NCBI GenBank assembly: GCA_040390065.1
Contig: JAZJZE010000002.1
Location: 32,931 to 96,930, forward strand
Direction of reading: 5' to 3'
DNA: 64,000 nucleotides
Origin: a bacterium
GTDB lineage: Archaea; Thermoplasmatota; E2; JACPAO01; JAHFTW01
Shown: positions 480 to 46,737 of the stretch, piece by piece
How positions within the stretch are numbered: the first letter of the stretch is position 1
Layout: every line of letters starts with the position of its first letter
Program-made: the position numbers and the translations under genes
Notes under the pieces: generated by a model
Database searches by the model: none
Told to the model about the DNA's origin: nothing
Seen by the model: the letters and a program-made list of their open reading frames with translations, nothing else

Positions 480-1043
480 TTACGCGTCCCCTTCGTCGTC
501 GCCCGCCACGGCGCCCGCCTGGCCTTCCGGGTCATCGCCGGTGCCTTCGCCTTCCTCGAGTTCCGGCCCCGGGTGGTAGCCGATGGGCAGGTCGGGATCT
601 TGCGGGCCCTGGTCGAAGTCGTACGGGAACTTGTTCCAGTACGGCGAGTCGTCGAGGACCGTGTACAGGCCGGTCTCCGCGTTGATGCCGCGGATCAGGT
701 GGCTGCCGATGCGGTCGACGTGGTACAGAAGCGTGCCTTGGAACACCTTGTCGCCGATCTGCTTGAAGAAGCGGCCGCACACGGTGATGCCGATGGTGCG
801 CTCCGTCACGAATTCGTCGAGGTAGTGCGCCATGTGGTACGCCGACGGCAACTCGATGTGGGGCCGGATGGTGACCTCTTCGCGCAGGCCGTGCAGGATC
901 ATAAGCGGCGTCGGGACGCCATCCTCACCGGAGGTGGAGTCGTGGTAGGCCTGCAACAGGCCGCGGACGGTCTGGTCGTCCAGCATCTTGGTCCCACGCC
1001 AGGGGCATCCCGCCCTGACGGCTGCGCCCAGGTGTGCACCCAT
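480..1043 (-). CDS. hypothetical protein with acidic Gly/Glu/Asp-rich C-terminal tail; probable start at Met near 986
   Basis: The minus-strand ORF has a balanced composition (K, Y, H, F, W present), unlike the Arg/Ala-rich ORFs overlapping it in other frames. It lies just downstream of the giant surface-protein gene on the same strand. No family recognised. Confidence 0.4.
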   Translation of the reverse strand: MGAHLGAAVRAGCPWRGTKMLDDQTVRGLLQAYHDSTSGEDGVPTPLMILHGLREEVTIRPHIELPSAYHMAHYLDEFVTERTIGITVCGRFFKQIGDKVFQGTLLYHVDRIGSHLIRGINAETGLYTVLDDSPYWNKFPYDFDQGPQDPDLPIGYHPGPELEEGEGTGDDPEGQAGAVAGDDEGDA

Positions 1044-1067: not shown

Positions 1068-4000
1068 CTAGGAGGGGCGTCCGGTCGGCGTGTGTCGCCG
1101 GCGCCACAACGCGAAGAACAGGACGCCGGCCACCGCCAACGTGCCGAGGGCCGCGATGAGGATGATGGGCAGCGCTGATCCCGCGCTCGACGTTGGCGTT
1201 GCGCCGGCGTTGCCGAAGGCACCCGTGGCGCCAGCCGGCACCGAGCGGCCGGACGAACCGAGGCGTTGGCAGGCGTCGCCGACGCCGTCGCCGTTGGCGT
1301 CCGCTTGGTCCTTGTTGGGCAGGGCCGGGCAGTTGTCGCGCAACGCGCCCGTGGGGCCGTCGTCCGGCACCGCGTCGCCGTCGACGTCCGTGTCGCAGGC
1401 GTCGCCGACGCCGTCACGGTCCAGGTCGGCCTGGTCGCGGTTCGGGATGTCCGGGCAGTCGTCCGCGCGGTCGATGATGCCGTCGCTGTCCCAGTCCCCG
1501 GGTTGCGATTCATTGGGGATGACGGGCTCGGGGCCGGGCTGCGGCGGTGCGGGCGCGTCCGTCTCGCAGGCGTCGCCGATGCCGTCGTGGTCCGAATCCG
1601 TCTGGTCGTGGTTGGAGATGGACGGACAGTTGTCCGCGGCTTCCTCGATGCCGTCGTTGTCGTTGTCCGTGTGCGGCCCGCTGTCGCGCGCGTTGGGGTC
1701 GCGCCTGACCCAGATGGTGAACGTGTCGCAGGTCGTGTCGACGCCACCGTTGGCATTGCCACCGTCGTCCCTGAGGCAGACCTTGACATCGGCTGTTCCG
1801 TACGTGCCCTTCTTGACCTCGTACGTGAGGTCGCCCCAGCCATTGGCCGCATCGTAGGGACCGTTGCAGCCCGCCATCGGGCACGACCACTTGACGACCG
1901 ACGGGGGCGTCGTGAAGGTCAGGCCCGCGGACGTTCCCGTCACCGTCGTCGTGAACACGAGGTGCTGCTGCGTCGCAGCGCCCCACAATTCATCGGTCGC
2001 CGTGGCGCGCGCCGGCGCGATGCCGGTCGCCCAGGCGGCGACGAGCTGCGGCCCTGCGTCCTGGGTAAGCTCCTGGTCCAAGCCTACGAAGACCGGCGCG
2101 TCGTTGACGCAGGTGGCCGTGATGGCGAAATCGGCAGGCGTGTAGAGATTGACGGCCGGCGCGACGTTCATACCGCTGTCCGTGAGCGTGACGCGGAAGC
2201 GCGCCGTGCCGCACTGGTCCTGCGCCAGCGTGTAGGTGAGGTCACCCCAGGTGCCGCCGCTGAACGGCGACGCCGTAAAGAGCGTCGGGGACACGGCGGG
2301 AGGCATGGCAAACAGGCCTGGATTCGTGACGACGGTGACGGTGAACTTGACGGTCTGTGTGGCGTCCTCACCGGCGTTGCCTGCCGTGATTCCGGTGGCC
2401 CAGCCCGCGACGGTCACAGGGCCGGCGCCGGGCAGGTTGTCCTCGCGCACCGTTGGCGGGTTGGCTGCGTTGAAGTGCGGCGCCTGGTTGACGCACGCCA
2501 CCGAAATGGCCAGGCTGTGGTCGATGCTCGTCGCCGGCTGCGAGTCGGGCGGCGGCGTCATGGTGCCGTCATCGATGAGGGTGATGGTGTACGTGGCCAA
2601 TCCGCATTCGTTGGCCGCGATGGTGTAGCTCAGGTCGCCCCAACCGTTTGCAGCCGTGAACGGACCCGGACAGTAGCTGGGGGACACCATTGTGCAGCCT
2701 GGCTCGCCGCCCTTCTTGCTGACGATTGGATCCGCCATGAGAAGCGTGGAACTGCCCGAGGCAAAGACGACCTTGAAGCGCATCTGCTGGTTCGCCTCGC
2801 TCGCCGGCACGCCCGTCTTGATGTTGTACGCCCAGGCCGGCGTGGAGACGACGGTGCTCGTTCCGGACTGCGAGATGGCGGCCGGGCTGCCGTTGTCGTC
2901 GAACGTCGGCTTGTCGTTGGGGCACGAGACGGTGAGCGTGAAGTCCGTCGCTGGCGTATAGGAGTTGACGTCGGGTGCGACGCTTGCGCCGTTGTCCGTG
3001 AGGGTGACGCGGAACGTGGCTTGGCCGCACAACCCCGTGGCGGACGTGTACGTGAGGTCGCCCCACGGGACGGCGGTGAACGGCCCGGCCGTTGACGTCG
3101 TCTGGGCGACCGACGGCGCCACAGCAAAGAGCGCCGCGTTCGTGATGACGGCGGTCGAGAAGACGAGCTGCTGCGACGATTCGTCGCCCGGGTCGCCTGC
3201 GATGGCGGGGCCGGGCGAGATTGCCGAGGCCCAGCCGATGACCGTCTGCGCGCCGGCGTCCTGCGCCACCGACGGCGGGTCGGCCGCAACGAAGGAGGGC
3301 GCGTCGTTGACGCACGTGACCTTCAACGTGACCGATCTCTGGTCCGTCTTGGCGCCGCCGGTCCCGGTGTTGCCGAGGTCGTCGACGTTGGCGGTCAGCG
3401 TGGTGAAGGTGCCGACGGCGCACTTGTCGGCCGCCGGCGTGAACTGCATGCCATCCAGCGCCGCATCGATGTCGGCCTGCTTGCCTTCGAAGATCATCGT
3501 GGCGTCGGCCGTGCCGTCGCCGACGCAGGCCGCAATGGACGGTGTGCCGGGCGATGCGCCGCCGCAGGCGAAGGACAGACCGGTGACCGTGGCCAGCGTC
3601 AAGGTCCCCTTGCCGACGGCCAAGCGCATGCGCAGCGGGCTCGGGTCGGAGTCAGCGTCGGCAACCGAAATGAGGTTGGAGTTGGCTGTCGAGAAGGTGA
3701 CCGCGTTGTCTTCGAGCATGGTCTGCGCGGCGGCCGGCACCGTGATGACCGGGGCGGAGTTGGCGCTCGTCAGGGTAATGGATACTTCGTTGCTCAGGAC
3801 GGAATCGCCCACACAGTTGCGGGCAAGCACGCGGTAGTAGTTGGTTCCGGATGTCGGGCTGTGCGTGTAGGTGAGGATGCCGGGCAGGGTCGTGCCCAGA
3901 AGCGTGTCCGCCGTGGTGACGCCGGCCGAGGCCTTCCAGTAGATCTTGTACACGAAGCCATACAACGCATCGCCCTTGAGGCCGCAGCCGCCGGGGCGGT

Positions 4001-6512
4001 CGATGCCGCCGGGGGTGTTGATGGGGGCCGTCCAGTCCAGCTTGACGGAGGAGGGCGTCAGCTGGCTGGCCGTCAGCGCGGTCGGCGCCTGCGGCTTCTT
4101 CACTTCGGCGTAAAAGTAGCCCGACTTCAGCCCCTCGCCGAAGCACGTGACGGCCGTGACTTGGTAGTAGTAGTCATTCTCGCCGGCCACGGACAAGTCG
4201 TCGGTGAAGAAATCGGTAATCGCGGTCGCGGACGGCGGCGTCGCACCGCGCCACACGCCGACTTGGCTCGTGACGGGAGTGCCGGCGCCGCCCGACGCGC
4301 CCGTGCCGCGGTAGACGCGGTAGTCGATGATGGGTAGCCCGCCGTCCGTCGGGACGTTCCAGGCCAGCTTGGCCTGCACGAGCGGCGTCGTCGTGTCGCC
4401 ACCCGGGGACGCCTTGCTCGTGGCGAAGGCCCAGGGCGCGACCGTGTTGAACGCCGTGGGCGTGGTGAAGCTCGGAGGCGAGGGCAGTACAGCGTTGGTG
4501 CCCTTGAAGGCGGCAAGCGAACCGTTGTCCATGCCGACCAGCAGCTCGGGGCGACAGTCGCCGTTCAGGTCGCCAAGTGCCATCGGCGAGGTGCCCGCCC
4601 CGGACGTGACGGGCGGCGTGGCCCAGAATGCCGTGGGAGGCGTGGCCCCGCGCGACACCGCGAGGGTCTTGTCCAGCGAACCGAAGGCGAATTCCAGGGT
4701 CGGGGTCGCGCCTTGCACGTAATTGAGGTCGGCAAGCGCGCCGCCGCCGGGGGACTCCGTGTTCGTCGCGGGAGGGGCCGGCACACGGGCCAGGGTCCCC
4801 TTGTCGACGATTGACCCCGTGTAGCCGCGGATTGTGACGTCGCCCTGCTTGGCGCTGTCGGCCGAGTCGGCGGAAGCCTTCACGTTCGCGATGTCCGGCT
4901 TGCCGTCGCCGTCGACGTCGCCGAGGGCCGGCGCGTTCCAGAGGTACGAGTCGGCGGCAGGGGACGTCACAAGCGACGCGCCCGACAGGGCGGCAGCGGT
5001 CTTGACCACGAACAGGGATGGTGTCTGCGTTGGCGTCCCGCTGCGGAAACCGGCGTTCACGGCGATTTCCTGCACGCCATCGCCATCGAGGTCGGCGACG
5101 GCCAGACCTTTCACTTGGTCGCCGGTTCCGGCCTGCTGGTTGCCGGGCAGGGAGACGACCTCACCGAATGTGATGGTCGAACCCACGACGGTGACGATGT
5201 AGACGCGCCCGTTGGGTGGGGCGGGGATGTCGGGGGAGTCGTCGGTGCCCAGGACGATCTCGAGGCCATCGTGGGCGCTGCGCAGTTCGGCAAGGGCCGG
5301 GGCGGCGGACGCGAACTGGTTGTACGTCCCGGTGAGGACACCCGTGGTCACGGCCACCTGGGGGAACTTGGCGTTGGCGACGATGGAGATTGCGCCCGCA
5401 GCATAGTCGAGAACGTACAGGGCCGCAGCCTCCGGCCCATAGCCCCCCGACGTCGCATCCATGGTCAGGACCACGATGTCGTTCTTGCCGTCGCCGTTGA
5501 CGTCGCCGATTGTCGGCGCGATGGGCGTGGTCAGCATGAACGGGGGCGCCCAAGCCGCCAACTGGGCTCCAGTCTGGCCGTTCAGGACCCGGATTTGGTC
5601 GGCAGGGCCGAGGAAACCGCCGGCACCGCCGTCCGTGAAGTCAGCAAAATAGAGGACCACTTCCGGCCACTGGTCTCCGTCCAGGTCGCCGGCTGCCAGT
5701 GTAGCGTGCCCGTCCTTGACGTTCGTGAAGCCTGCAATTCCCGACGACAGCCACAGGGTCGTGAACGCGCCCGCCGGGGACTGGCGCATGGCGCGCACGC
5801 CTGGCGTGCCGGATGCCGTGTTAGAAAAGTCCGTGACGGCGACGATGTCCATGAGGCCGTCGCGGTCGAGGTCGACGATAAGCGGGCTTGATCCGATGGC
5901 TCGCGTTGCGCCGGCGCCCGGCGTCGTCACCACGAGGTCCGCCATCGCCGTCGGGGTCGTCATGGCCGCAGAGAACACGGTCGCCGCCGTGTGGCGACTG
6001 TCCTTGTGGAACTGGGGCCACGCCGCGCCGCTTTGCACGTCGAACGGTGCGCTGGCCACCGACGTCAGGCCGGCGGCGGTCGCCGTCAGGACGTATCCTT
6101 TGCCGATGGTGTCGATGCGCACGTTGCTAAACGTCGCGATGCCGCTTACGAGGCTGGCCGTGACCGTGCTCTGTTTCCCGGCGACGGGGCCCTGCAGAAG
6201 GACGCCGCATGGGCGCGCCGGCGGGCCGGCGGTGGGACACGGGGGCCACGTCGTGATGGCGAGCGTCACGGTGCCGGAGGCGCCGGCGTCGACCGCGTTG
6301 GAACCATCGACGGCTGCGACCTGGATGGCGGGCGTGAAGGCTTCGCCGGCACCGACGTTGGCGGGGGGGACTGTGAACTTGAGGCTGACGGCCCCTGCGG
6401 CCTGCGCGGGCGGAACGGCGAAGAGGCCGGCGACGAAGAGGACTGCGAGGAGCAGGGACGCCGTGCGCGAGCGAGACCTTGGACTACCTTGACCGTCGAA
6501 CGCGACCACCAT
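1068..6512 (-). CDS. giant (1814 aa) secreted surface protein: signal peptide, Ig-like/cadherin-like repeats, six FG-GAP-type Ca-binding repeats, fibronectin type III-like domains, C-terminal TSP3 repeats, single C-terminal TM helix with basic tail
   Basis: N-terminal signal peptide (LLLAVLFVAGLFAVPPAQA). FG-GAP motifs DLDRDGLMDIVAV, GDLDGDQWPEVV, GDVNGDGKNDIVV, ADLDGDGVQEIAV, GDVDGDGKPDIA, GDLNGDCRPELLVG. TSP3 repeats DNDNDGIEEAADNCPSISNHDQTDSDHDGIGDACE ... DNCPALPNKDQADANGDGVGDACQ. C-terminal LPIILIAALGTLAVAGVLFFALWRRRH. Confidence 0.8.
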   Translation of the reverse strand: MVVAFDGQGSPRSRSRTASLLLAVLFVAGLFAVPPAQAAGAVSLKFTVPPANVGAGEAFTPAIQVAAVDGSNAVDAGASGTVTLAITTWPPCPTAGPPARPCGVLLQGPVAGKQSTVTASLVSGIATFSNVRIDTIGKGYVLTATAAGLTSVASAPFDVQSGAAWPQFHKDSRHTAATVFSAAMTTPTAMADLVVTTPGAGATRAIGSSPLIVDLDRDGLMDIVAVTDFSNTASGTPGVRAMRQSPAGAFTTLWLSSGIAGFTNVKDGHATLAAGDLDGDQWPEVVLYFADFTDGGAGGFLGPADQIRVLNGQTGAQLAAWAPPFMLTTPIAPTIGDVNGDGKNDIVVLTMDATSGGYGPEAAALYVLDYAAGAISIVANAKFPQVAVTTGVLTGTYNQFASAAPALAELRSAHDGLEIVLGTDDSPDIPAPPNGRVYIVTVVGSTITFGEVVSLPGNQQAGTGDQVKGLAVADLDGDGVQEIAVNAGFRSGTPTQTPSLFVVKTAAALSGASLVTSPAADSYLWNAPALGDVDGDGKPDIANVKASADSADSAKQGDVTIRGYTGSIVDKGTLARVPAPPATNTESPGGGALADLNYVQGATPTLEFAFGSLDKTLAVSRGATPPTAFWATPPVTSGAGTSPMALGDLNGDCRPELLVGMDNGSLAAFKGTNAVLPSPPSFTTPTAFNTVAPWAFATSKASPGGDTTTPLVQAKLAWNVPTDGGLPIIDYRVYRGTGASGGAGTPVTSQVGVWRGATPPSATAITDFFTDDLSVAGENDYYYQVTAVTCFGEGLKSGYFYAEVKKPQAPTALTASQLTPSSVKLDWTAPINTPGGIDRPGGCGLKGDALYGFVYKIYWKASAGVTTADTLLGTTLPGILTYTHSPTSGTNYYRVLARNCVGDSVLSNEVSITLTSANSAPVITVPAAAQTMLEDNAVTFSTANSNLISVADADSDPSPLRMRLAVGKGTLTLATVTGLSFACGGASPGTPSIAACVGDGTADATMIFEGKQADIDAALDGMQFTPAADKCAVGTFTTLTANVDDLGNTGTGGAKTDQRSVTLKVTCVNDAPSFVAADPPSVAQDAGAQTVIGWASAISPGPAIAGDPGDESSQQLVFSTAVITNAALFAVAPSVAQTTSTAGPFTAVPWGDLTYTSATGLCGQATFRVTLTDNGASVAPDVNSYTPATDFTLTVSCPNDKPTFDDNGSPAAISQSGTSTVVSTPAWAYNIKTGVPASEANQQMRFKVVFASGSSTLLMADPIVSKKGGEPGCTMVSPSYCPGPFTAANGWGDLSYTIAANECGLATYTITLIDDGTMTPPPDSQPATSIDHSLAISVACVNQAPHFNAANPPTVREDNLPGAGPVTVAGWATGITAGNAGEDATQTVKFTVTVVTNPGLFAMPPAVSPTLFTASPFSGGTWGDLTYTLAQDQCGTARFRVTLTDSGMNVAPAVNLYTPADFAITATCVNDAPVFVGLDQELTQDAGPQLVAAWATGIAPARATATDELWGAATQQHLVFTTTVTGTSAGLTFTTPPSVVKWSCPMAGCNGPYDAANGWGDLTYEVKKGTYGTADVKVCLRDDGGNANGGVDTTCDTFTIWVRRDPNARDSGPHTDNDNDGIEEAADNCPSISNHDQTDSDHDGIGDACETDAPAPPQPGPEPVIPNESQPGDWDSDGIIDRADDCPDIPNRDQADLDRDGVGDACDTDVDGDAVPDDGPTGALRDNCPALPNKDQADANGDGVGDACQRLGSSGRSVPAGATGAFGNAGATPTSSAGSALPIILIAALGTLAVAGVLFFALWRRRHTPTGRPS

Positions 6513-6561
6513 TGGATGCCACCGAGCCCTTCCGGGGAAGGGTACCTCGGACCTAGTTTGG

Positions 6562-6572
6562 CCCTACTTAGG
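6562..6572 (-). promoter_or_regulatory. promoter-like CCTAAGTAGGG element about 55 nt upstream of the giant surface-protein gene; related copies at 10493-10504 and 13044-13055
   Basis: Minus-strand reads GCCTAAGTAGGGCC (6562-6572), CCGTAAATAGGGACC (10493-10504), CCGCAAATAGGCGCC (13044-13055). Each lies 35-60 nt upstream of a surface-protein start codon. TATA-box-like with G/C-rich flanks. Confidence 0.4.
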
Positions 6573-6608
6573 CTTTCCGGCCATTGCGTCGCTCGAATCG
6601 CATCGAAA

Positions 6609-7961
6609 CTATTGCGGTCGCACGGGCGGCTTGGGGCGCATGGCCAAGGCCACGACTGCGACCAGGGCCGCGATGGCGAGGGCTCCGACGAGGACGCCGA
6701 CTCCCCACAGCATGTTGGTGGCGGCCGTGTTTGGCGCCGGCGCGGGTTGGTTGCCCCCGGCCGCGCTCGTATCCCTTACGTGGCCGGCGCCGCCAGCCGA
6801 TGCAGGCGTGCCGTAGATATTGTCGAAGTCGCACGCGTCGCCGATGCCGTCCTTGTCGGAGTCCGCCTGGTCCGGATTGGACACGGATGGGCAGTTGTCC
6901 GTGTAGGTGCTGGAGATGCCGTCGTCGGCGATGGCCTGGTTGGGCACGCCGTCGCCGTCGATGTCGTCGTCGCACAGGTCGCCGTGGGTGTCCTCGTCGA
7001 CGTTCGTCTGGGCGTTGTTGGCCTTGTCGGGGCAGTTGTCCGAGGCGTCCGGCACGCCGTCGAAGTCGCGGTCCGGCTGTTGCTGCGGCGGTGGCGTCGG
7101 GGGCGGCGTCTCGCCAGCGGGCGGAGCGGCCGTGTCGTCGTCGCACGCGTCGCCCACGTTGTCACGGTCGGCATCGTCCTGGTCGTGGTTCGGCATGGCG
7201 GGGCAGTTGTCGGCGACGTCGATGACGCCGTCCTGGTCGGTGTCCTGGCCGTCGGCGCCGTCGAAGGGCGTGCAGGAGATGTTGATGTCGTCGAGGAGCG
7301 GGCCCTTGTTGTCGCTGCTGGACGGTGGCTGCGGCGCCGCCTGGAATCCGAGATAGTACGTGCCTTGGTCCGTGACCGTGTACACCGGCGTCTTGAACGT
7401 GGTCCAGACGGTGTTGGAGCTCACGGCCTGGCTGAAGGGCGAGGGCCCCCAGCTGTTGGTGGGCAACGGCCGCGTCAAGGTCGTCGGGGCCGGGATTAGA
7501 TAGGCAAGGACAGTGTCCGCCGTTGCCGAGCGCTGCGGACCCGCAAGCGAGAAGGTGAGCGTGTAGTTGCCCGGCGACAGGAACATCGTGTGGTAGAAGA
7601 AGCCGGCCCGGAACGTCTGGCCGTCGAGCTCGACGAAGGAGCCCATGGTCTTGGTGGCAAACCCTGCGCCCGGGGCCGTGAAGACCGGGTCGTTGGGGCT
7701 GGTGAAGAAGTCGACGGTGCCGTCGAAGACCTTCCAGTTGCGCCACGTCGTGGCCTTGTTCACTTCGCTGGTCTGCGACGTGCCGCTCTGGATGCGGTCG
7801 CCATCGAAATTGTCGTGGAACGTGGCGAAGCCTTCGCAGCCGCGCGCCTGCGCGACGGCGCCGTGCGGCACGACCAGCATGCCGATGGCCAGCACCGCCA
7901 CGACGAGGCACGAACGGGAGAGAGACAGTCCACCCACGCCCTTCACATTTCGGCCAGGCAT
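6609..7961 (-). CDS. secreted surface protein: N-terminal beta-rich domain plus TSP3 repeats plus C-terminal TM anchor with basic tail
   Basis: Signal peptide MPGRNVKGVGGLSLSRSCLVVAVLAIGMLVVPHGAVAQA; start taken at the Met at 7961 rather than the most upstream start of the ORF. TSP3 repeats DQDGVIDVADNCPAMPNHDQDDADRDNVGDACDDD, DNCPDKANNAQTNVDEDTHGDLCDDDIDGDG, DNCPSVSNPDQADSDKDGIGDACD. C-terminal hydrophobic helix then RPKPPVRPQ. Only 41 bp downstream of the preceding gene, so likely co-transcribed with it. Confidence 0.7.
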   Translation of the reverse strand: MPGRNVKGVGGLSLSRSCLVVAVLAIGMLVVPHGAVAQARGCEGFATFHDNFDGDRIQSGTSQTSEVNKATTWRNWKVFDGTVDFFTSPNDPVFTAPGAGFATKTMGSFVELDGQTFRAGFFYHTMFLSPGNYTLTFSLAGPQRSATADTVLAYLIPAPTTLTRPLPTNSWGPSPFSQAVSSNTVWTTFKTPVYTVTDQGTYYLGFQAAPQPPSSSDNKGPLLDDINISCTPFDGADGQDTDQDGVIDVADNCPAMPNHDQDDADRDNVGDACDDDTAAPPAGETPPPTPPPQQQPDRDFDGVPDASDNCPDKANNAQTNVDEDTHGDLCDDDIDGDGVPNQAIADDGISSTYTDNCPSVSNPDQADSDKDGIGDACDFDNIYGTPASAGGAGHVRDTSAAGGNQPAPAPNTAATNMLWGVGVLVGALAIAALVAVVALAMRPKPPVRPQ

Positions 7962-8002
7962 ATGAGGCTTGTCTGCGGACCCCTGGAGGGCCGCGGTGCT
8001 CG

Positions 8003-10459
8003 CTACTCGGGGCGCATGCGGCGCCGCAGCAGCAGCATCAGGAGGCCAACCGTCAGGACGGCTCCGACGACCGCCATCGTTGCGGCCGTCGTCCAGGACA
8101 TGCCGGCGACACCTTGCGTGGCCGATGCGCCCACCGGGGAAGCATCGCGCGCCGAGCCACCGGAGGACAAGTAGGAGCACTCGTCACCGACGCCGTCGTT
8201 GTTGGAGTCGAGTTGATCCGGGTTGGCGTACCATGGGCAGTTGTCGAGGAAGGCCCCTGTCGGGCCCGAGTTGCGGACCCCGTCGCCATCGATGTCGATG
8301 TCGCAGACGTCGCCCTTGCGGTCGGCGTCCATGTCAGCCTGATCGTGGTTGGGCGTGCTCTGGCAGTCGTCGGCCACGTCGGGGACACCGTCATGGTCCG
8401 CATCCGGCAGGGGCACGACCACGGGCGTCTCGGTGACTGGGGCCCATTCTGTGACCGGGGCCTCGACCGTGCATGCATCGCCCATGCCATCGCCGTTCGT
8501 GTCGGCCTGGTCGAAGTTGGCAACGGACGGGCAGTTGTCGGACAAGTCAGGGATGCCGTCGAGGTCGCTGTCGAGCGACACGCCGAAGGGCCAGCGGAGG
8601 GACGGGTCGTTGTGCTTCGTGCCCGTGAAGCCGTCGCACGAAGAGTCCTGGCGGATGGGCACGATGGCCGTCGCCGTCGACTGCAGGCCGGAATTGTAGT
8701 AGCTGCTGAGGCCGTTGAAGTCGGTGACGGTCACGGTGACCGTGTAGATGCCTTCCTTGGAGAAGACGTGCGGCACGAAGGCGTACTGGTTGTACCAGTC
8801 ATAGGGATGCGCAAACCAGCGGCCCTGCACGACGTTGAGGGCACCACTGCCCGGGTCGCCGAAGTTCCACTTGGCCCACTTGAAGTCCGCTTCGCCCACG
8901 ATGGAGTCGCGAGCGTCGAACCAGATGGGGTAGTTGGGACACGTGAAGGCGTACGTCGGCTGCAGGACGGCTTGCGGCTTGCACTTGCCGAACCACGTGA
9001 TCTTGTCCGAGATGGGGCCGTCCGGGGGCGCAGTCACGGGGATGCCGTCGACGAGTCCGCCGAAGAGGTATGCGCTGCATCCCGTCGAGATGGCGGTTGT
9101 GCCGACGAAGCCGCCGCGGCTGTAGTCGTCGGCCTTGGTCGGGCTGCCGGCTCCCGTCGGCATTCCGGAGGCGAAGACCGGCGCAACGGTCGGCGTCGTG
9201 GGATCGTAGCGGTAGACCAGGTTCTTGAACGGCCCGCCGTTGAAGATGAAGATGTAGCGGCCGTCGTAGACGGCGGAAAGCGAACCGCACAGTGGCGTGA
9301 AGTTCTGCTGGTAGATCGTGGTCACTCCCGTGGACGGGGTGAACTTCATGATGGAGCACTCCGGAACGGGGCAGGGGCCGACCGTGGGGCAGAGCGGGCT
9401 GTAGACGCAGGCGCCGTTCGAGACCTCGGTCGGCGTGCTGCAGGCGACGTCGTCGAGCCAGGTGCCGCCGAAGAGGTAGATGTCGGAGCCCACCGTGACG
9501 GCCTCCATGTCGTAGCGCTTGCCTTCCGGTGTGATGGAGCCGGCGGTGTTGGGCGGCAGCGGGTTCGGGTTCAACGACACGGTGCAGGATGCCGGGTCGA
9601 AGCGGTAGATCTCGTTGGACGTGTGCAGGCTGAACGGGACCAGGTTGCCGTCGCCTTCCAGGTAGCGGCCGCCGAAGACGTAGGCGGCACCTTCGGCCCA
9701 GGCCCCGGCCATGTAGTCGAACTGCCGCGGCAGGACGCAGTTCATCGTGGTGACCAACTGCGATGGCGGGTAGAAACTGTAGATTTCGTTGTTGAGGGCG
9801 CCGCCATTCGTGCCAGCGAACGTGTACGCCATGTCGAGGTCGGGGTCGTACGCGAGGGCCTGGCGACCGAGGGGCTTCGGCAGGCTGTTGGCCGGGTTGA
9901 TCTCGCCGCCCGGGGCGTTGGGGGTGTACGGGATGCCCGGCGAGGGACCGAACGTTGGGCCTTGGGGCATGCCGCGGCTGAACTTGGTGATGCTGGAGAG
10001 TTCCGTGCCGCCCAGGTCCTTGACACCGCCCAACACGTAGGCGTCCGTGCCGTCCCAGAATGACGTCGCCTCCATGACTTGGTCGGGGAGCACGACGGGG
10101 ATGGGCGTCGGCGTGTCAGGCGTCGGCCCAGGGCCGGGCGGGCCGCAGAGGTCCAGGTTGGGAGCGGTGACGGGGTCGGGTGAGATGATGGTGGGCTCGA
10201 CCGGGCCCGGCATGCCGATCATTTGGTCGCAGTATTCCTGGTGGACGACGAGTTGCACGCCGTACGTGGGCGACGTGTTCCAGAAGCCGCTCCATGGGTT
10301 GGACGGGGGGAAGCCTTGCTGGGTGGGGACGCACCCTGGGTTGGCGTACGTGCACGGGTCGATGACGGCCTGGCCCGGGATGGGGACGAGAGCGACAAGC
10401 AGGACTGCGGCGGCGAGTTTCAACGTCAGGGCTGGAACGGACATCAGGAGGACTCCCAC
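8003..10459 (-). CDS. secreted surface protein: Kelch-type beta-propeller plus PKD domain plus TSP3 repeats plus C-terminal TM anchor (paralog A)
   Basis: Signal peptide. Kelch-like blades (YTFAGTNGGALNNEIYSFYPPS, AAYVFGGRYLEGDGN..EIYRFDP, DIYLFGGTWLDD, YIFIFNGGPFKNLVYRYDP, AYLFGGLVDGIPV). PKD-like module (FDARDSIVGEADFKWAKWNFGD...YTVTVTVTDFNGLSS). TSP3 repeats (DSDLDGIPDLSDNCPSVANFDQADTNGDGMGDAC ...). C-terminal TM plus RRRMRPE. Confidence 0.75.
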   Translation of the reverse strand: MGVLLMSVPALTLKLAAAVLLVALVPIPGQAVIDPCTYANPGCVPTQQGFPPSNPWSGFWNTSPTYGVQLVVHQEYCDQMIGMPGPVEPTIISPDPVTAPNLDLCGPPGPGPTPDTPTPIPVVLPDQVMEATSFWDGTDAYVLGGVKDLGGTELSSITKFSRGMPQGPTFGPSPGIPYTPNAPGGEINPANSLPKPLGRQALAYDPDLDMAYTFAGTNGGALNNEIYSFYPPSQLVTTMNCVLPRQFDYMAGAWAEGAAYVFGGRYLEGDGNLVPFSLHTSNEIYRFDPASCTVSLNPNPLPPNTAGSITPEGKRYDMEAVTVGSDIYLFGGTWLDDVACSTPTEVSNGACVYSPLCPTVGPCPVPECSIMKFTPSTGVTTIYQQNFTPLCGSLSAVYDGRYIFIFNGGPFKNLVYRYDPTTPTVAPVFASGMPTGAGSPTKADDYSRGGFVGTTAISTGCSAYLFGGLVDGIPVTAPPDGPISDKITWFGKCKPQAVLQPTYAFTCPNYPIWFDARDSIVGEADFKWAKWNFGDPGSGALNVVQGRWFAHPYDWYNQYAFVPHVFSKEGIYTVTVTVTDFNGLSSYYNSGLQSTATAIVPIRQDSSCDGFTGTKHNDPSLRWPFGVSLDSDLDGIPDLSDNCPSVANFDQADTNGDGMGDACTVEAPVTEWAPVTETPVVVPLPDADHDGVPDVADDCQSTPNHDQADMDADRKGDVCDIDIDGDGVRNSGPTGAFLDNCPWYANPDQLDSNNDGVGDECSYLSSGGSARDASPVGASATQGVAGMSWTTAATMAVVGAVLTVGLLMLLLRRRMRPE

Positions 10460-10533
10460 CGGCGATTCTCGCCAGAGAAGGACCGCCCAGGTCCCTATTT
10501 ACGGTTTTTGGGCCGTCTCCTTCGGGCGCGTCC

Positions 10534-12999
10534 CTACGTCTTGCCCTTGTCGCCCTTCATCGGGCGGCGCAGCACCAGGAGCAGGAGCGCCGCCGTTCCG
10601 AGCGCAGCCAGCACCGCCATCGTGGCCGCCGACGACCATGGCAGGCCGCCGGCCCGCTCGGCCGCATTGCCTGCGGCGGAGCCCGCGCGCACGGCACTGC
10701 CGGGCGAGTCGATGTACGAGCATTCGTTGCCGACGCCGTCGTTGTTGGAGTCGAGCTGGTCGGGGTTCGGGTACCATGGGCAGTTGTCCAGGAACGCCCC
10801 CGCGGGGCCCGAATTGCGAACGCCGTCGCCATCGATGTCGATGTCGCAGACGTCGCCCTTGCGGTCCGTGTCCATGTCGGCTTGGTCGTGGTTGGGCGTG
10901 CTTGCGCAGTCGTCGGCCACGTCGGGGATGCCGTCATGGTCGGCGTCCGGTAGCGGGATGACTTGCTCCTCCGGCGCCGTGGTGACGACCGGCGGCGGCA
11001 CGGTTTCGGCAGTGCACGCGTCGCCCATGCCGTCGCCGTTGCCGTCGGCTTGGTCGTTGTTGGCAACGGAGGGGCAATCGTCGGAAAGGTCCGGGATGCC
11101 GTCGAGGTCGCTGTCGAGCGACACGCCGAAGGGCCAGGTCAGAAGCGGGTCGTGGTGCTTGGTGCCCGTGAATCCGTCGCACGTTGAGTCCTGAACGATT
11201 GGCACGGTGGCGGTCGCCGTCGCCTTGAAGCCGGAGGTCAGCACGCTGCTCAGGCCGTTGAGGTCCGTGATGGTCACGGTGACGGTGTAGATGCCGGGGT
11301 TCGCGTAGACGTGCGAGACGAAGGCGTACTGGTTGTACCAGTCGTACGGGTGGTCGAACCAGCGGCCCTGGATCGGGTTCGTGGCGCTCGGGCCATCGCC
11401 GAAGTCCCATTTTGCCCACTTGAAGTCGGCTTCGCCCACGATGGAGTCGCGAGCGTCGAACCAGATGGGATAGTTGGGGCACGTGAAGGCGTAGGTCGGC
11501 TGCAGGATGGCTTGCGGCTTGCACTTGCCGAACCACGTGATCTTGTCCGAGATGGGGCCGTCCGGCGGGGCGGTCACGGGGATGCCGTCGACCAAGCCGC
11601 CAAACAGGTAGCCGCTGCAGCCGGTGCTGATGGCCGAGACGCCGACGAAGCCGCCGCGCATGTAGTCGTTCGTCTTGAGCGGGTTGCCGGTGCCAACGGG
11701 GAGGCCGGCGATGAAGGTGGGATTGACAAACGGCGTCGTCGGGTCGTACCGGTACGCGCTGCCGCCGGCGAAGACGTAGATGTAGCGGCCATCGTAGATG
11801 CTCGAGAGCGAACCGCACAACTGCGGGAAGTACGGGTTGATCATGGTCGTGACGCCCGTCGACGGCGTGAACTTCATGATTGAGCACTGCGGCACGGGGC
11901 ACGGCACGTTGGGCGCCGACGTCGGGCACAGCGGGTTGTAGATGCACGCGCCGCTCGAGATCTCCGTGGGCGTGCTGCACGCCACGTCCTCCAAGTACGT
12001 CCCGCCGAAGAGGAAGATGTCGCTGCCGGTGCTTTGCGCCTCCAGGTCGTAGCGCTTTCCTTCCGTCGTCGGGTTGGGGGTCGGCGCCACCGTCGGCGGC
12101 AACGGGTTCGGGCTGAGGGACACCGTGCACGTGGCCGGGTCGAACCGGTAGATTTCGTTTGACGTGTGCAGGCTGAAGGGCACGGTGTTGCCGTCGCCTT
12201 CGAGGTAGCGGCCGCCGAAGAGATAGGCCGCACCGTCGGCCCACGCGCCGGCCATGTAGTCGAACTGCCGCGGCAGCACGCAGTTCATGGTCGAGACGAG
12301 AAGCGATGGCGGGTAGAAGCTGTAGATTTCGTTGTTGAGTGCGCCGGCGTTCGTGCCGCCGAAGGTGTACACTGTGTCCAGGTTGGGATCGTACGCCAGG
12401 GCCTGGCGACCGAGGGGATGGGGCAACGAGGCCACCGTCTGAATCTCGCCGCCTGGCGCATTCGGGACCCAGGGTCCGCCGTTGGGGCCGAACGGTCCCA
12501 GGGGCATGCCTTGGCTGAAGCGGGTAATGTCGGACACTTCCGTGCCGGCCAGATCCTTGACGCCACCGATCACGTAGGCGTCCTTGCCGTCCCAGAACGC
12601 GGTCGTCTCCATCAGCTGGCTCGGCAGCAGGACCGGCAGCGGCTCCGGCGTGTCAGGGCAGATGCACGGAGGGCTCGGGATGCCGCTCGGTGCGGCGCAT
12701 GCGACATAGTTCGGGTCGGTGATGGGATCGGGCGACAGGATGAGCGGCTCGGCGCCGGGCGTCATGCCGAGCATCTGGTCGCAGATGTCCTGGTGCACGA
12801 CGAGCTGCGTGCCGTAGGTTGGCGACCTGTTCCAGAAGCCGGCCCAGCCGTTGGATGGGGCAAAGCCGTTGTTGCCGGCGGGCACGCAGCCGGAGCTGTC
12901 GATGGTGCAGCGGTCGATGATGGCCGACGCCGGCATCGGCACGAGGAGGCCCACGAGAAGGGCGATGGCGGCTTTGGACGCAAGCGATTGGACGGACAT
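10534..12999 (-). CDS. secreted surface protein: Kelch-type beta-propeller plus PKD plus TSP3 repeats plus C-terminal TM anchor (paralog B; tandem duplicate of 8003-10459)
   Basis: Collinear similarity to the upstream neighbour along the full length (same Kelch blades, PKD module, TSP3 repeats, C-terminal TM plus basic tail). Start taken at MSVQSLASKAAIALLVGLLVPMPASA (12999). Confidence 0.75.
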   Translation of the reverse strand: MSVQSLASKAAIALLVGLLVPMPASAIIDRCTIDSSGCVPAGNNGFAPSNGWAGFWNRSPTYGTQLVVHQDICDQMLGMTPGAEPLILSPDPITDPNYVACAAPSGIPSPPCICPDTPEPLPVLLPSQLMETTAFWDGKDAYVIGGVKDLAGTEVSDITRFSQGMPLGPFGPNGGPWVPNAPGGEIQTVASLPHPLGRQALAYDPNLDTVYTFGGTNAGALNNEIYSFYPPSLLVSTMNCVLPRQFDYMAGAWADGAAYLFGGRYLEGDGNTVPFSLHTSNEIYRFDPATCTVSLSPNPLPPTVAPTPNPTTEGKRYDLEAQSTGSDIFLFGGTYLEDVACSTPTEISSGACIYNPLCPTSAPNVPCPVPQCSIMKFTPSTGVTTMINPYFPQLCGSLSSIYDGRYIYVFAGGSAYRYDPTTPFVNPTFIAGLPVGTGNPLKTNDYMRGGFVGVSAISTGCSGYLFGGLVDGIPVTAPPDGPISDKITWFGKCKPQAILQPTYAFTCPNYPIWFDARDSIVGEADFKWAKWDFGDGPSATNPIQGRWFDHPYDWYNQYAFVSHVYANPGIYTVTVTITDLNGLSSVLTSGFKATATATVPIVQDSTCDGFTGTKHHDPLLTWPFGVSLDSDLDGIPDLSDDCPSVANNDQADGNGDGMGDACTAETVPPPVVTTAPEEQVIPLPDADHDGIPDVADDCASTPNHDQADMDTDRKGDVCDIDIDGDGVRNSGPAGAFLDNCPWYPNPDQLDSNNDGVGNECSYIDSPGSAVRAGSAAGNAAERAGGLPWSSAATMAVLAALGTAALLLLVLRRPMKGDKGKT

Positions 13000-13155
13000 G
13001 GCGGACCCCGGTGGCACGTTGGCCTAGTTGGCAACCCCCTGGCGCCTATTTGCGGTTTCTGGACCGAACACTGAGCCGCCAAGCCGCCTCCCGGCCCCGC
13101 CCATATTCGTTATCTAGGGGGTGGCTCTGGCGCGAAACATCCTGGTGACTGGACC

Positions 13156-14205
13156 ATGAGCGAGCCCACCGCAGTGGCCTCGGTCGCGCACGACGGTGCG
13201 CCCCCGGAGCCCGCCCCGAACCCCCCGATGGACGCCCCCGAGCCCGAGATGCAGGCCCCGGCCGTCCCCGAAGGCGCCTCCCCCGTGGATGCCGATGCCC
13301 CCGCCGAGCTCGCCCCGGCACCGCCCGTGCCGAACCCGAACGGCCCCAAGCCCGGCATGAAGAAGGAAGAGTTGCAGAACCGCGCCAACCTCCTGCGCCG
13401 CGAACGCGACCGCCTCAACGACGACGCCCGCAAGCACGCGGAAGAGCGCGACGGATTCAACGCGCAAGTGCGCGGACTCGTCAACGAAGCCAACGAGCAC
13501 AAGAAGCGCCGCGACGAACTGAACGAAGGCGTCAAGCGCGCGAAGGAGGCCCGCGACGAGGCCAACCGCATCGCGGACGAGGCGGGCAAGGGCGCCGACC
13601 AACTGCGCCGCGAGCGCATGCCGGAAGGCGACGCAACCCTCACGGTCGCGAAACTCAAGAAGGAGGCCAAGCAGCTGGAATTCCAGCAGATGACCTCCGT
13701 CCTCACCGTCACCAAGGAGAAGGCCCTCATGGAGCGCCTCAAGGAGATCGGCAAGCAGATCCGCGAGAAGGAGAAGACGCTGCGCGCCGACCCCGAACTC
13801 AAGGCCGCGCTCGAAAAGGCCGAGGAACTGAAGGAGAAGGCAGAGAAGTCGCACGCCAAGGTCGGCGAGATGGCCGAGAAGGCGCAAGGCGAACACGACG
13901 CCATGATCAAGCTCTACAAGCAGTCTGACAAACTGCGAAAGACTGCGGACAAGCTGCAGGAACGCTTCGTCATCAGCAAGATGGAAGCGGACAAGATCCA
14001 CAAGACGTACATCGAGTTCGTGAACGCCATCCACGAGATCGAAGACCAGGCCGCCACGTCAGGCGCCCCCCCGGGCTCGAGCCGCGCCGAGGCCAACCAA
14101 GCCCGCAGCGAGGCCGCCGCAGAACTCGTGTTCCAGAAGTTCAAAGCCGGCGAGAAGTTGTCGACCGAGGACTTGCTGACACTGCAGAAGGCTGGGCTCC
14201 TCTAG
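13156..14205 (+). CDS. coiled-coil protein (COG1340-like archaeal coiled-coil family)
   Basis: 349 aa, long heptad-like K/E/R/A-rich stretch (EELQNRANLLRRERDRLNDDARKHAEERDG ... KEKAEKSHAKVGEMAEKAQGEHDAMIKLYKQ). Good GC3. No catalytic motifs. Confidence 0.55.
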   Translation: MSEPTAVASVAHDGAPPEPAPNPPMDAPEPEMQAPAVPEGASPVDADAPAELAPAPPVPNPNGPKPGMKKEELQNRANLLRRERDRLNDDARKHAEERDGFNAQVRGLVNEANEHKKRRDELNEGVKRAKEARDEANRIADEAGKGADQLRRERMPEGDATLTVAKLKKEAKQLEFQQMTSVLTVTKEKALMERLKEIGKQIREKEKTLRADPELKAALEKAEELKEKAEKSHAKVGEMAEKAQGEHDAMIKLYKQSDKLRKTADKLQERFVISKMEADKIHKTYIEFVNAIHEIEDQAATSGAPPGSSRAEANQARSEAAAELVFQKFKAGEKLSTEDLLTLQKAGLL

Positions 14206-23583: not shown

Positions 23584-23914
23584 GAGGATTCCGCCGAGGC
23601 CGGGGGCAACACACGCACACGGAAACAGGATACATCGCACCCGGCGAGGGGCCGAGCCCGCCGGAGCGAAGCGAACGGCGGGCGAGTGGGGTTGGGCTCA
23701 AGCGGGCCCAAGCGAAGCGCGGGCAAGCGTGGGCCGCCGGGGGCGCGTTGCGGAACGCCCTGGACAAGCCCCTGCGAGCGCAGGTGCGCGAGCCCTTGGG
23801 GGCCGTGGGGGCCGAAATGCCCTCCGCCGGGGGGAAACGCGCGGGGGGCGGGAAGCCCCCCGCCGCTATGTGGTGTCGAGCGCAGCGAGACATCACGAAG
23901 AAAATGATCGACCT

Positions 23915-25252: not shown

Positions 25253-25387
25253 GGTGTGTTCAGCTCCTCCACTTGTTGACGCCGGTATGGCCGGACCTTG
25301 CCGGCATAGGGAATGAGGGGCCGGCGTCGGCCCCCCATCCCCCGAGTGCATCCCATCCCAGCCTTGTGAGGCGAGGACCGTGAAACC

Positions 25388-25648: not shown

Positions 25649-25674
25649 TGTTTGACCTCTTGGGGCGCCGCAGT

Positions 25675-29939: not shown

Positions 29940-31817
29940 TCAGGCCCGCCGACGCATGACGGCGACGACGACTCCGGCTCCGGCGAGAAGACCGACGCCC
30001 GATGCCAGCAGGATGCCGGCAAGGCTGCCGGTCGCCGCCTGGGCGGCCGGGCTGCCCGCAACAGTCTTGTCGAGCGGGCGGGCGCCTTCGCTTGGCGCCG
30101 CGCCGTCGCGGTACGTGAAGATGCTGCAGGCGTCGCCGGCGGCGTCGAGGTCCGAGTTCTCCTGCAGCGGGTTGCGGATTTGCGGGCAGTTGTCCGTCGC
30201 GTCGGGCACGAGGTCCCCGTCCCGATCGTCGTCGCACGCGTCGCCCATGGCGTCCCCGTCGAGGTTCTCCTGGTCTGCGTTGGAAACGGCCGCACAGTCG
30301 TCCGCGGCGTTCACGATGCCGTCGTTGTCGGCGTCCGCATCGCACGCGTCGCCCAGCAAGTCGTCGTCGGCGTCCGTCTGTGATGGGTTGGCATCCAGCG
30401 GGCAGTTGTCGACACGGTCGATCCAGCCGTCGCCGTCGGAGTCGGCGCCGGCCACTTGGTCGTCCACGCCGTCATGCGGCGGACGCGGCGCTTGGCCATT
30501 GTCCTGGGAGATGGTTCTCGGGATGCACATGGTTCCCTCCGTCGCGACCACTTGCGACGTGTGCGTCGAGGTCATTCCGTTCTCGACCGTGACGGTCTCC
30601 GTGACTGTGTATTGGCCCGGCTGCGCGTACTGGTGCGTCGGGCTCGGGTCCGTGCTCGTGGCACCGTCGCCGAAGTCCCACGCCCAGCCCGTGATGTTGT
30701 ACGTGCCGCCTGCGGACTGGTCCGCAAAGGAGACCGGATGCGGGCCACACGTCCCCGAGGAACTCGTCGCCTTGAAGCGAGCCGCCGGCGGGATGGGGGG
30801 CGGCGGGGGCGGCGGGACCCCGAGTTGCGAGAAGCGCGTGTTGTGCGCGGCGTAGACCGATTCATGGGCCGGGATGCTGAAACTCCAGCTCAACCCCGCG
30901 CCGGAGTCGAGGTTGGTCGAACACGTGCACGTGTCGGGGAAGGGCAGGTGCAGGCCGATCTGGCGCCAGACGGTGCTGTAGAAGTCCTCCATGTAGTTCG
31001 AGCCGGCCGTGAGCGGCACCCATTGTTCGATGCGGCCGTTGGGCGTATTGTCGACGTTGACGCTGCAGCCGATTGCGCCCTTGGGTTGGCCTTTGAAGCC
31101 GTTGCTTGCATCGCTTACCTGGAGGAAGCAGTCGCCGGCGCGGTACAGGATGATGGTCCGGGCGCTGTCCGTCGGGTTGTCGACCGTCACGTTCGTGGTG
31201 TAGAAGTCGTTGCCCGAGACGTACGTGTCGACCTCGGTGACGACCATGCCCGTGCTGCCCACCGCGACAACCGTCGTGGCCGAATTGGTGACCGGCGCAG
31301 TCCCCGAGGACGGGCCGCCGAGGCCGCCGAGGCTGTCGGAGGTCTGCGACTGCGAGATGGGAGTAAACGCGCGGTAGCCACCGATGGACCACGTGGCCGA
31401 CGAGTGACTTGCCTCGTTCGGGGCGTACAGCGTCGTCCCATCCCAGAGGAACGTGCCGCAATCGCCGGGCTTGACGGTCGGCGAGTACATCTCGAACTGG
31501 TTGTCGCCCTGGCGCGCAATCTGGCAGCCGAGTTCGTTGCCGATCCAGACGTCGATCAGCGGCCCGGCGCCGGGGAGCGTCGGCAGTTGATTGGAGTTGA
31601 TCATCTGCGGGCCTTGGTAGCCGATGTCGACGCAGGGCACCGAGCAGCATGGGTTCATGCAACTCGTCACGTTGGCCTGGGCGGGGGGCGTCCCGTTGAA
31701 CGAGGCGGTCAACGCGGCGAGGCAGACGACGGCGAGGAGGGCGCGCGTGAAGCGTTGTGCGTCCCAGCTCGTCGGAGCGTCCGCCGCCTCATCCACCCAA
31801 CCAACCCAATCCCGCAC
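29940..31817 (-). CDS. secreted surface protein: N-terminal domain plus PKD domain plus TSP3 repeats plus C-terminal TM anchor with basic tail
   Basis: Signal (RALLAVVCLAALTASFNGTPPAQA). PKD (WDFGDGATSTDPSPTHQYAQPGQYTVTETV). TSP3 repeats (DSDGDGWIDRVDNCPLDANPSQTDADDDLLGDACDADADNDGIVNAADDCAAVSNADQENLDGDAMGDACDDDRDGDLVPDATDNCPQIRNPLQENSDLDAAGDAC). C-terminal TM plus MRRRA. Track start is GTG. A TATA-like CTTATAC lies about 27 nt upstream, so the transcript may be leaderless. Confidence 0.7.
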   Translation of the reverse strand: MRDWVGWVDEAADAPTSWDAQRFTRALLAVVCLAALTASFNGTPPAQANVTSCMNPCCSVPCVDIGYQGPQMINSNQLPTLPGAGPLIDVWIGNELGCQIARQGDNQFEMYSPTVKPGDCGTFLWDGTTLYAPNEASHSSATWSIGGYRAFTPISQSQTSDSLGGLGGPSSGTAPVTNSATTVVAVGSTGMVVTEVDTYVSGNDFYTTNVTVDNPTDSARTIILYRAGDCFLQVSDASNGFKGQPKGAIGCSVNVDNTPNGRIEQWVPLTAGSNYMEDFYSTVWRQIGLHLPFPDTCTCSTNLDSGAGLSWSFSIPAHESVYAAHNTRFSQLGVPPPPPPPIPPAARFKATSSSGTCGPHPVSFADQSAGGTYNITGWAWDFGDGATSTDPSPTHQYAQPGQYTVTETVTVENGMTSTHTSQVVATEGTMCIPRTISQDNGQAPRPPHDGVDDQVAGADSDGDGWIDRVDNCPLDANPSQTDADDDLLGDACDADADNDGIVNAADDCAAVSNADQENLDGDAMGDACDDDRDGDLVPDATDNCPQIRNPLQENSDLDAAGDACSIFTYRDGAAPSEGARPLDKTVAGSPAAQAATGSLAGILLASGVGLLAGAGVVVAVMRRRA

Positions 31818-43405: not shown

Positions 43406-43409
43406 TGCC

Positions 43410-45693: not shown

Positions 45694-45700
45694 CGAAGAC

Positions 45701-46735: not shown

Positions 46736-46737
46736 GG

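Follow-up and report, generated by a model that had tools for sequence, protein, structure and literature searches.

The 64-kb stretch analysed here (contig JAZJZE010000002.1, positions 32,931 to 96,930 of the forward strand; "the window" always means this whole stretch) contains four neighbouring long open reading frames, A to D, and a fifth one, E, located about 17 kb away, all on the minus strand. Each of their products ends in a cassette composed of thrombospondin type-3 (TSP3) repeats, a linker, a hydrophobic segment predicted to be a transmembrane (TM) helix, and a short Arg-rich tail. A first-pass annotation of this DNA had proposed that the five proteins carry a common anchoring or sorting module below unrelated ectodomains, and all five open reading frames are present where that annotation had placed them. 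The positions of the genes and of the parts of their cassettes are given in Table 1.

Table 1. Genes of the TSP3 cluster and its surroundings, and parts of the C-terminal cassettes (positions in the window; sizes in amino acids, aa)
Feature	Position	Strand	Description
Protein A, 1814 aa	1068..6512	-	Putative signal peptide, FG-GAP propeller, repeated immunoglobulin/cadherin-like modules, TSP3 cassette
A cassette	1071..1664	-	Unit 1 1566-1664, Pro-rich spacer 1494-1565, unit 2 (two repeats) 1269-1493
A cassette, C-terminal part		-	G/A/S linker 1173-1268, TM helix 1104-1172, RRRHTPTGRPS tail 1071-1103
Protein B, 450 aa	6609..7961	-	Putative signal peptide, beta-rich domain, TSP3 cassette
B cassette	6612..7241	-	Unit 1 7143-7241, Pro-rich spacer 7071-7142, unit 2 6831-7070
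B cassette, C-terminal part		-	Linker 6708-6830, Trp-started TM helix 6639-6707, RPKPPVRPQ tail 6612-6638
Protein C, 818 aa	8003..10459	-	Putative signal peptide, Kelch-type propeller, PKD (8702-8953), TSP3 cassette
C cassette	8006..8569	-	Unit 1 8471-8569, spacer 8402-8470, unit 2 8177-8401
C cassette, C-terminal part		-	Linker 8096-8176, Trp-started TM helix 8027-8095, RRRMRPE tail 8006-8026
Protein D, 821 aa	10534..12999	-	Paralog of C; Kelch, PKD (11242-11484), TSP3 cassette
D cassette	10537..11112	-	Unit 1 11014-11112, spacer 10945-11013, unit 2 10720-10944
D cassette, C-terminal part		-	Linker 10639-10719, Trp-started TM helix 10570-10638, RRPMKGDKGKT tail 10537-10569
Protein E, 625 aa	29940..31817	-	Putative signal peptide, galactose-mutarotase-like supersandwich, PKD (30549-30770), TSP3 cassette
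E cassette	29943..30440	-	Three contiguous TSP3 repeats 30126-30440, linker 30024-30125, TM helix 29955-30023, RRRA tail 29943-29954
Protein F, 1847 aa	14564..20107	-	Big_1 domains, PGF-CTERM-like tail SPGFELVGLLVGLAAVGLLARRKA
DUF7121 coiled-coil protein	13156..14205	+	Lys/Glu-rich; Pfam 155 bits; divergently transcribed
Conserved 187-aa cytoplasmic protein	480..1043	-	Acidic-tailed; ortholog of a 167-aa L081 gene product; other end of the cluster

Differing ectodomains above a common C-terminal cassette

The N-termini of A to E, read by eye, consist of a basic n-region, a hydrophobic core and an AxA-type end, and they look like Sec signal peptides. Pfam detects FG-GAP_3, FG-GAP and TSP_3 in protein A; the N-domain of protein B matches no Pfam family and has no sequence relative in the Protein Data Bank (PDB). 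Proteins C and D are paralogous along their entire length (72% identity in BLASTP, 825 columns), and the number of ectodomain types is therefore four, not five as first counted, although the N-domains of these types do differ. The N-domain of protein E has close relatives in soil Actinobacteria, and its supersandwich is predicted to be a carbohydrate-binding-like fold. A PKD domain had been listed as part of the common cassette; it is found in C, D and E, but Pfam detects none in A or B. Protein C is identical to the database protein P0121, which begins five codons later, and the database copy of protein E (P0128) begins at codon 8. The closest relatives of protein C (47-55% identity) are encoded on contigs L081 and L083.

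All five proteins pass the Pfam TSP_3 model (PF02412; gathering cutoff 25 bits) with scores of 55.7-75.5 bits. According to a regular-expression scan, full C-type repeats (CPxxxNxxQxDxDxDxxGDxC, with C-x19-C spacing) number exactly three in each of them, and each also holds one or two short N-type loops (DxDxDGxxDxxDxC). As the Asp-rich Ca loops amount to about six in each protein, the three to six repeats mentioned in the first-pass annotation are a fair description. Every repeat contains one Cys pair, and neither these pairs nor the Asp/Asn residues at the Ca-ligand positions vary among the repeats of the cassettes. In A to D, one repeat is followed by a Pro-rich spacer of 23-24 residues and then by two repeats that are joined by an N-type loop, whereas the layout of E is different, with three contiguous repeats. 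Compared with the PDB, a profile of the cassette matches human COMP (3fby, E=9.2e-54), and also TSP-2, TSP-1 and a bacterial OmpA-family TSP3 structure (5wtl). An insertion, GPxGAxxDNCP, is common to A, C and D and is absent from COMP.

The cassette of protein A (210 residues) was modelled with AlphaFold2 using a five-sequence alignment, which resulted in a mean predicted local distance difference test score (pLDDT) of 61.9. The two TSP3 units reach values of 70-80 and are essentially without regular secondary structure, as one would expect of Ca-wrapped TSP3 "wires". Values below 50 are obtained for the Pro-rich spacer (residues 49-65) and for the linker (residues 149-178), and a helix is predicted at residues 178-202.

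Among the non-paralogous members of the set, BLASTP detects similarity in the last ~200 residues only, to which the PKD domain is added when E is compared with C and D. The cassettes of A to D are colinear also as DNA, over about 400 nucleotides, with 66-67% identity and E values of about 1e-23 to 1e-28 (for A versus B, 66% over 418 nucleotides, E=6e-28). Their alignment runs through the Pro-rich spacer and thus extends beyond the TSP3 consensus; the cassette of E matches the other four only repeat by repeat. Because the DNA identity is merely at this level, recent gene conversion between the cassettes was rejected, and old duplication and shuffling is the explanation that we retain.

The cassette is also present under other ectodomains in related genomes. 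At the position of B, contig L081 carries a gene (12601-13881) with a B-type cassette and an N-domain without similarity to that of B. In protein P0009, yet another ectodomain is followed first by a single repeat, then by a Pro-rich spacer and two further repeats, and finally by a linker, a TM helix and the sequence RRRSQR. E-like ectodomains are found with either cassette layout (P0129, P0131, P0134, P0141, P0156, P0157, P0195 and P0217). On contig L092, three paralogs in tandem combine the cassette with IgGFc-binding-like and PKD domains, and L084 encodes a more divergent Kelch/PKD protein with the cassette (TSP3, TM). A metagenome scan that used the neighbouring DUF7121 protein (see below) as the query returned only seven short contigs, L084 among them. 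In the ortholog of B on ENA contig L083 (12710-13633), the frame is lost inside the cassette, giving a product of 307 aa; as two Logan contigs contain a version of 429 aa, the loss is probably an assembly frameshift. The colinear cassettes of A to D together with the further ectodomains in the relatives bear out the proposal that one C-terminal module is reused on unrelated ectodomains, and this reuse within the archaeal lineage is real.

Judged by homology searches, the TSP3 portion alone is a generic and very widespread repeat. A search with the cassette profile among 1.84 billion representatives gave 64,144 protein clusters at E<=1e-3. These are dominated by giant multi-repeat proteins, and the matched stretch almost always comprises positions ~14-150, which are the repeats and not the tail, so that this search is uninformative on the tail. 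A scan of GTDB species genomes with the cassette alignment yielded 461 confirmed relatives from many bacterial phyla and a few archaea, in which mostly the repeats are covered. A search for homologs with the cassette alone gave only short proteins (<=355 aa) and generic TSP3 matches, and in this search bacterial TSP3 proteins often end in MYXO-CTERM-like or PEF-CTERM tails.

As a background, we used 75 complete TSP3 proteins from diverse GTDB genomes. In seven of these, the C-terminus is clearly a TM helix with a basic tail, and about five further ones are borderline, having Cys-containing, MYXO-CTERM-like tails. In the window, by comparison, each of the four independent TSP3 families has a C-terminus of this kind (4/4 versus 10-17%). 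A rough chance estimate for this is ~1e-4 to 1e-3 ((12/75)^4 is ~7e-4), and it is unlikely that all four families carry the tail by chance.

Two classes of tails, and the search for a processing enzyme

In all five proteins, a G/A/S/P-rich linker of 27-41 residues, the segment with low pLDDT values in the AlphaFold2 model, is present between the last repeat and the helix. Hence, the helix does not follow the repeats directly, as had been described. The presence of a C-terminal hydrophobic helix with an R/K-rich tail was described correctly: a 23-residue hydrophobic stretch is followed in each case by a short tail that starts with RR, RRR or RP.

None of the NCBIfam models of C-terminal sorting signals (PGF-, PEF-, MYXO-, LPXTG-, GlyGly-type and others) reaches its threshold in A to E or in the tails of four relatives. 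For the MYXO-CTERM models (TIGR03901/TIGR03382), A to E give no match even at E<=10, and no Cys precedes their helix; the tail of one relative scores 8.4 bits (cutoff 15.85). The PGF-CTERM model (TIGR04126, cutoff 24.5 bits) does not match A to E, which lack a PGF motif. The best of the other scores are those for LPXTG, 12-14 bits versus a cutoff of 15.9 and without an LPXTG motif, and the rest are far below.

When 23 tails of the lineage were aligned on the basic cluster, no motif common to the tails of all families was found. In 10 of the 23, a Trp precedes the RR cluster by exactly 23 residues, often as PW, SW or GW, and in about 15 a Trp lies between positions -18 and -25; it is missing there in A, E, P0009, P0131, P0141 and P0157. 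This Trp looks like an interfacial aromatic residue flanking a 22-residue helix and not like a strict motif.

The length of the uncharged segment separates the tails of the lineage. It is 25-35 residues in A to E and most of their relatives, with shorter segments in P0156 (21), P0217 (23) and L091/P0131 (17). The tails of three surface proteins without TSP3 (protein F, a 993-aa protein of L081 and a 462-aa protein of L092) have 15-18 uncharged residues behind a Pro motif (PGF, PDLP or PSPMP). Because the TSP3 tails mostly have 25-35 uncharged residues versus 15-18 in the Pro-motif tails, two classes of tails can be distinguished in the lineage: short ones, which are similar to archaeosortase substrates, and long ones, which suffice for stable anchors.

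Protein F contains many ~110-aa repeats, no TSP3, and a hydrophobic stretch of only 15 residues, and may represent an S-layer or major surface glycoprotein. It had been assigned a PGF-CTERM tail. The literal PGF motif is there, but the score with TIGR04126 is 22.3 bits, just below the cutoff. Lacking a TIGR04126 match and having a longer uncharged segment, the TSP3 module is distinct, as had been proposed, from the PGF-CTERM/archaeosortase tail type of the same locus. The other two proteins without TSP3 are encoded at L081 14054-17035 (993 aa, at the position of A) and L092 16116-17504 (462 aa). Their tails have PDLP or PSPMP before the helix and RKRRR or KRRA after it, and match no C-terminal sorting model at threshold; possibly, these are variants of archaeosortase-type signals.

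Pfam scans of the other genes of the 64-kb window revealed no sortase, archaeosortase/exosortase, rhomboid or signal peptidase, and no candidate processing enzyme is present among the neighbours of the cluster in L081, L083, L091 and L092. The only membrane protease seen in the window belongs to the PrsW family of intramembrane metalloproteases (57722-58648, +), and its gene lies directly upstream of that for malate dehydrogenase. It was rejected as a processing enzyme on its position in the window, ~26 kb away from E and ~45 kb from the cluster. An ArsA/Get3-type ATPase (28818-29897, -) is encoded immediately downstream of E. We also rejected this protein as a tail-insertion factor, because it is not beside the E-like genes in L091 and L092 and because A to E do not have a tail-anchored topology; the adjacency looks coincidental. 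With tails that match no sorting model, no motif common to all families, no enzyme in the window and TSP3 repeats that are generic, the idea of an undescribed sorting cassette is not supported.

Organism and gene neighbourhood

The archaeal origin of the window is proven by an archaeal signal recognition particle (SRP) RNA at 27932-28241 (+), which scores 141 bits versus a gathering score of 96.5. Despite this RNA, the 107-kb source contig, which bears P0121, is deposited as "[bacterium]", probably a taxonomic mislabel. Contig L081 is deposited as "uncultured Halobacteriales archaeon", and the E-like P0131 is labelled "Thermoplasmatota archaeon". The metagenome-assembled genomes of the lineage, deposited as "bacterium", "Halobacteriales archaeon" or "Thermoplasmatota archaeon", are high in GC and non-halophilic. 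The cytoplasmic proteins encoded in the window are not acidic (isoelectric points of 5-10, normal Lys content), and therefore the host is not a salt-in halophile.

The gene order of the cluster is kept in relatives. The DUF7121 gene is divergent from one or two Kelch/PKD/TSP3/TM genes, which are followed by a small TSP3/TM gene and by the gene for a large propeller protein, with the orthologous gene for the 187-aa protein coming last. The DUF7121 gene adjoins the TSP3 cluster also in L081, L083 and L084, and it brackets the cluster together with the gene for the 187-aa protein both in the window and in L081. The GC content of the window is 66-71% and its composition is flat along the length. 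Because of the syntenic gene order and the flat GC content, the TSP3 genes form a conserved chromosomal cluster, and the view of the region as a mobile "island" was rejected.

Other genes of the window encode, according to Pfam, an HVO_0163-type helix-turn-helix domain, a GH57 enzyme and a protein of the PAC2 family (PF09754), besides DUF7121. A gene for FtsZ (24053-25351, -) has a small ribbon-helix-helix gene (25388-25768, -) directly upstream, a pair that resembles the haloarchaeal cdrS-ftsZ2 pair. Lipobox-like signals (LVAGC, LLAGC and TLAGC) are present in the secreted proteins encoded at 21323-22504 (-), 22531-23640 (-) and 32657-34141 (+), respectively, the last of which has BNR/sialidase-type repeats. 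These proteins would represent a third anchoring mode in the same region. Positions 37049-50341 contain a glycosylation-type gene cluster encoding a DUF6541 multi-TM protein, GT4 and GT2 glycosyltransferases and a type I phosphodiesterase, together with a multi-TM protein without a Pfam match that, judged by eye, is possibly a Wzx-type flippase. A secreted FG-GAP protein without an anchor is encoded at 41051-43405.

A probable retained anchor below a putative stalk, and known systems

We consider it likely that A to E are type-I membrane proteins that are retained in the membrane by an ordinary anchor located below a Ca-binding juxtamembrane stalk. Sec export would put their ectodomains outside, the ~22-residue TM helix would remain in the membrane as the anchor, and the short Arg-rich tail would stay in the cytoplasm, in line with the positive-inside rule. 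In the presence of Ca2+, and with the disulfides within the repeats intact, the TSP3 segment would fold into a compact acidic "wire" that, together with the two flexible spacers, would lift the ectodomain off the membrane. Besides this role as a spacer or stalk, the segment possibly adds Ca-dependent contacts or an adhesion surface. The module would have spread within the lineage by duplication and domain shuffling. A plain retained type-I anchor accounts for everything seen. That a Ca-binding TSP3 stalk near the membrane holds the ectodomains off, as the first-pass annotation had suggested, is a reasonable reading.

Several points weigh against this explanation. Sortase-type signals, too, consist of a low-complexity linker, a hydrophobic helix and a basic cluster, and the Trp at position -23 may serve for recognition, as a weak motif, instead of being an interfacial aromatic residue. 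We infer the topology, and with it the retention of the helix in mature A to E, from features of the sequences, of which the signal peptides were called by eye. The binding of Ca2+, the dependence on it and the geometry of the stalk are predicted by homology. In addition, the enzyme search covered 64 kb of genome, and hence the absence of an enzyme holds for the window and not for the genome.

It is rather unlikely that the TSP3 repeats are mainly a Ca2+-dependent adhesion or matrix module, involved in cell-cell, cell-particle, S-layer or glycocalyx binding, with the TM helix still being a plain anchor. This alternative draws on analogy and homology. The best NCBIfam match of A to E is the cell-cell cohesion protein MtsC (NF047638), with 86-98 bits over the repeat region only, below the equivalog cutoff of 350 bits, so that A to E do not belong to this family. 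Moreover, TSP3 joins the barrel and the OmpA domain in TraB (PMC12045341), the thrombospondin genes of MGII archaea have been read as adhesion genes (PMC6461757), and ammonia-oxidising archaea have been reported to induce TT3R proteins in their surface matrix (PMC6593220). The ectodomains of A to E, with their propellers, PKD domains and carbohydrate-binding-like fold, themselves look ligand-binding. However, the repeats are always nearest to the membrane, below the ectodomain, a position that fits a spacer better than an exposed adhesin, and an adhesive role overlaps and is compatible with a retained anchor.

We give little credence to the possibility that the tail, with or without TSP3, is a new tripartite sorting signal that is recognised by a dedicated enzyme, parallel to PGF-CTERM/archaeosortase A. 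The tripartite shape is there, the Trp at -23 occurs in three ectodomain families, and the TSP3 and Pro-motif tails are separate classes within the same genomes. In bacteria, TSP3 arrays often precede true signals (MYXO-CTERM-like, PEF-CTERM), and MtsC is the best NCBIfam match. Against this, six of the proteins named above lack the Trp, and neither a motif of all families nor a sorting model at threshold is found. With its ~22 residues, the helix is sufficiently long to be a stable anchor; the hydrophobic part of the PGF-type tails here comprises 15-18 residues. No candidate enzyme lies beside the cluster in the window or in the four related contigs. Similarly improbable is a more far-reaching version, in which the Trp-x22-RR helix below TSP3 would be a true recognition element (a sorting or retention signal for a membrane enzyme), or in which Ca-loaded stalks would pack side by side into a Ca-dependent juxtamembrane layer that organises many ectodomains, either of which would constitute a second display system parallel to PGF-CTERM/archaeosortase. 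Finally, it is very unlikely that there is no cassette and that generic TSP3 repeats and generic TM anchors just coincide in secreted proteins, for although TSP3 is generic and the matches in the profile search and in GTDB genomes seldom reach into the tail, A to D are colinear through the Pro-rich spacer, A, C and D have an insertion relative to COMP, all four families carry the tail, and the same cassette is present on further ectodomains in relatives.

The retained anchor below a TSP3 stalk, which we prefer, has counterparts in several known systems. As in MtsC and the MYXO-CTERM TSP3 proteins (NF047638, TIGR03901), which are secreted, a TSP3 array is located just before a C-terminal helix and an Arg cluster. 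Unlike these, A to E lack the Cys-containing motif and do not match TIGR03901, their host is a single-membrane archaeon, and their helix is longer and probably retained. TSP3 is known as a Ca-binding connector in TraB and OmpA-family proteins (PMC6372800, PMC12045341), the repeats of the latter (PDB 5wtl) being those of Dai et al. 2017 as cited in PMC12045341, whose folding is reported to depend on Ca2+ and disulfides. These proteins and A to E have in common short TSP3 arrays with disulfides within the repeats and a (in A to E, predicted) Ca-binding connector beside a membrane element. In the OmpA-family/TraB case, TSP3 forms the periplasmic link between a beta-barrel and an OmpA domain that binds peptidoglycan, whereas the repeats of A to E join an extracellular ectodomain to a single alpha-helical anchor, and neither Pfam nor NCBIfam detects an OmpA domain in them.

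The repeat grammar of A to E (C-type repeat, N-type loop, C-type repeat) is that of eukaryotic thrombospondins and COMP. Of the parts of thrombospondin, Pfam shows TSP_3 only, without EGF repeats or the C-terminal lectin-like domain, and the PDB alignments span the type-3 region only. Unlike COMP, A to E have three repeats only, A, C and D contain the 6-residue GPxGAx insertion, and A to D contain the Pro-rich spacer. Among archaea, thrombospondin genes are reported to be widespread adhesion genes in MGII/Poseidoniales Thermoplasmatota (PMC6461757), and the TT3R proteins of Nitrosopumilus are reported to be components of the surface matrix (PMC6593220). Like A to E, these are archaeal surface proteins with TSP3 repeats, and they are read as adhesion or matrix components. 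Compared by description and not by sequence, the two papers present no fixed TSP3-linker-TM module across ectodomains.

Regarding the anchor, crenarchaeal S-layer proteins are anchored by a C-terminal TM helix, and the lipid anchor of PGF-CTERM/ArtA is the known euryarchaeal mode (PMC8559796). A to E share the C-terminal TM helix, which is retained in the S-layer proteins, with the former; unlike A to E, the crenarchaeal proteins belong to another lineage, have other ectodomains and lack a TSP3 stalk. With PGF-CTERM/archaeosortase A substrates, A to E have in common a (putative) signal peptide, a low-complexity linker, a C-terminal helix and a basic cluster, but the PGF motif and a match to TIGR04126 are absent and their uncharged segment is 25-35 residues long versus 15 in protein F.

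Our literature search found no account of a fixed TSP3-spacer-TSP3-linker-TM module under many ectodomains in one archaeal lineage, nor of TSP3-module tails set apart from short Pro-motif tails. If our explanation is true, it shows how one uncultured archaeal lineage builds its surface, namely by placing a single Ca-binding stalk-plus-anchor module under many ectodomains. It would also provide a sequence rule for tails, according to which a long TM segment below TSP3 is probably retained and a short one with a Pro motif is probably processed. A new sorting system is unsupported, and no new mechanism is involved: TSP3 beside anchors (MtsC, TraB and the OmpA family) and C-terminal TM anchoring in archaea are both already known. 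Compared with these systems, the finding is a real, lineage-specific reuse of a predicted Ca-binding stalk in combination with a plain membrane anchor.

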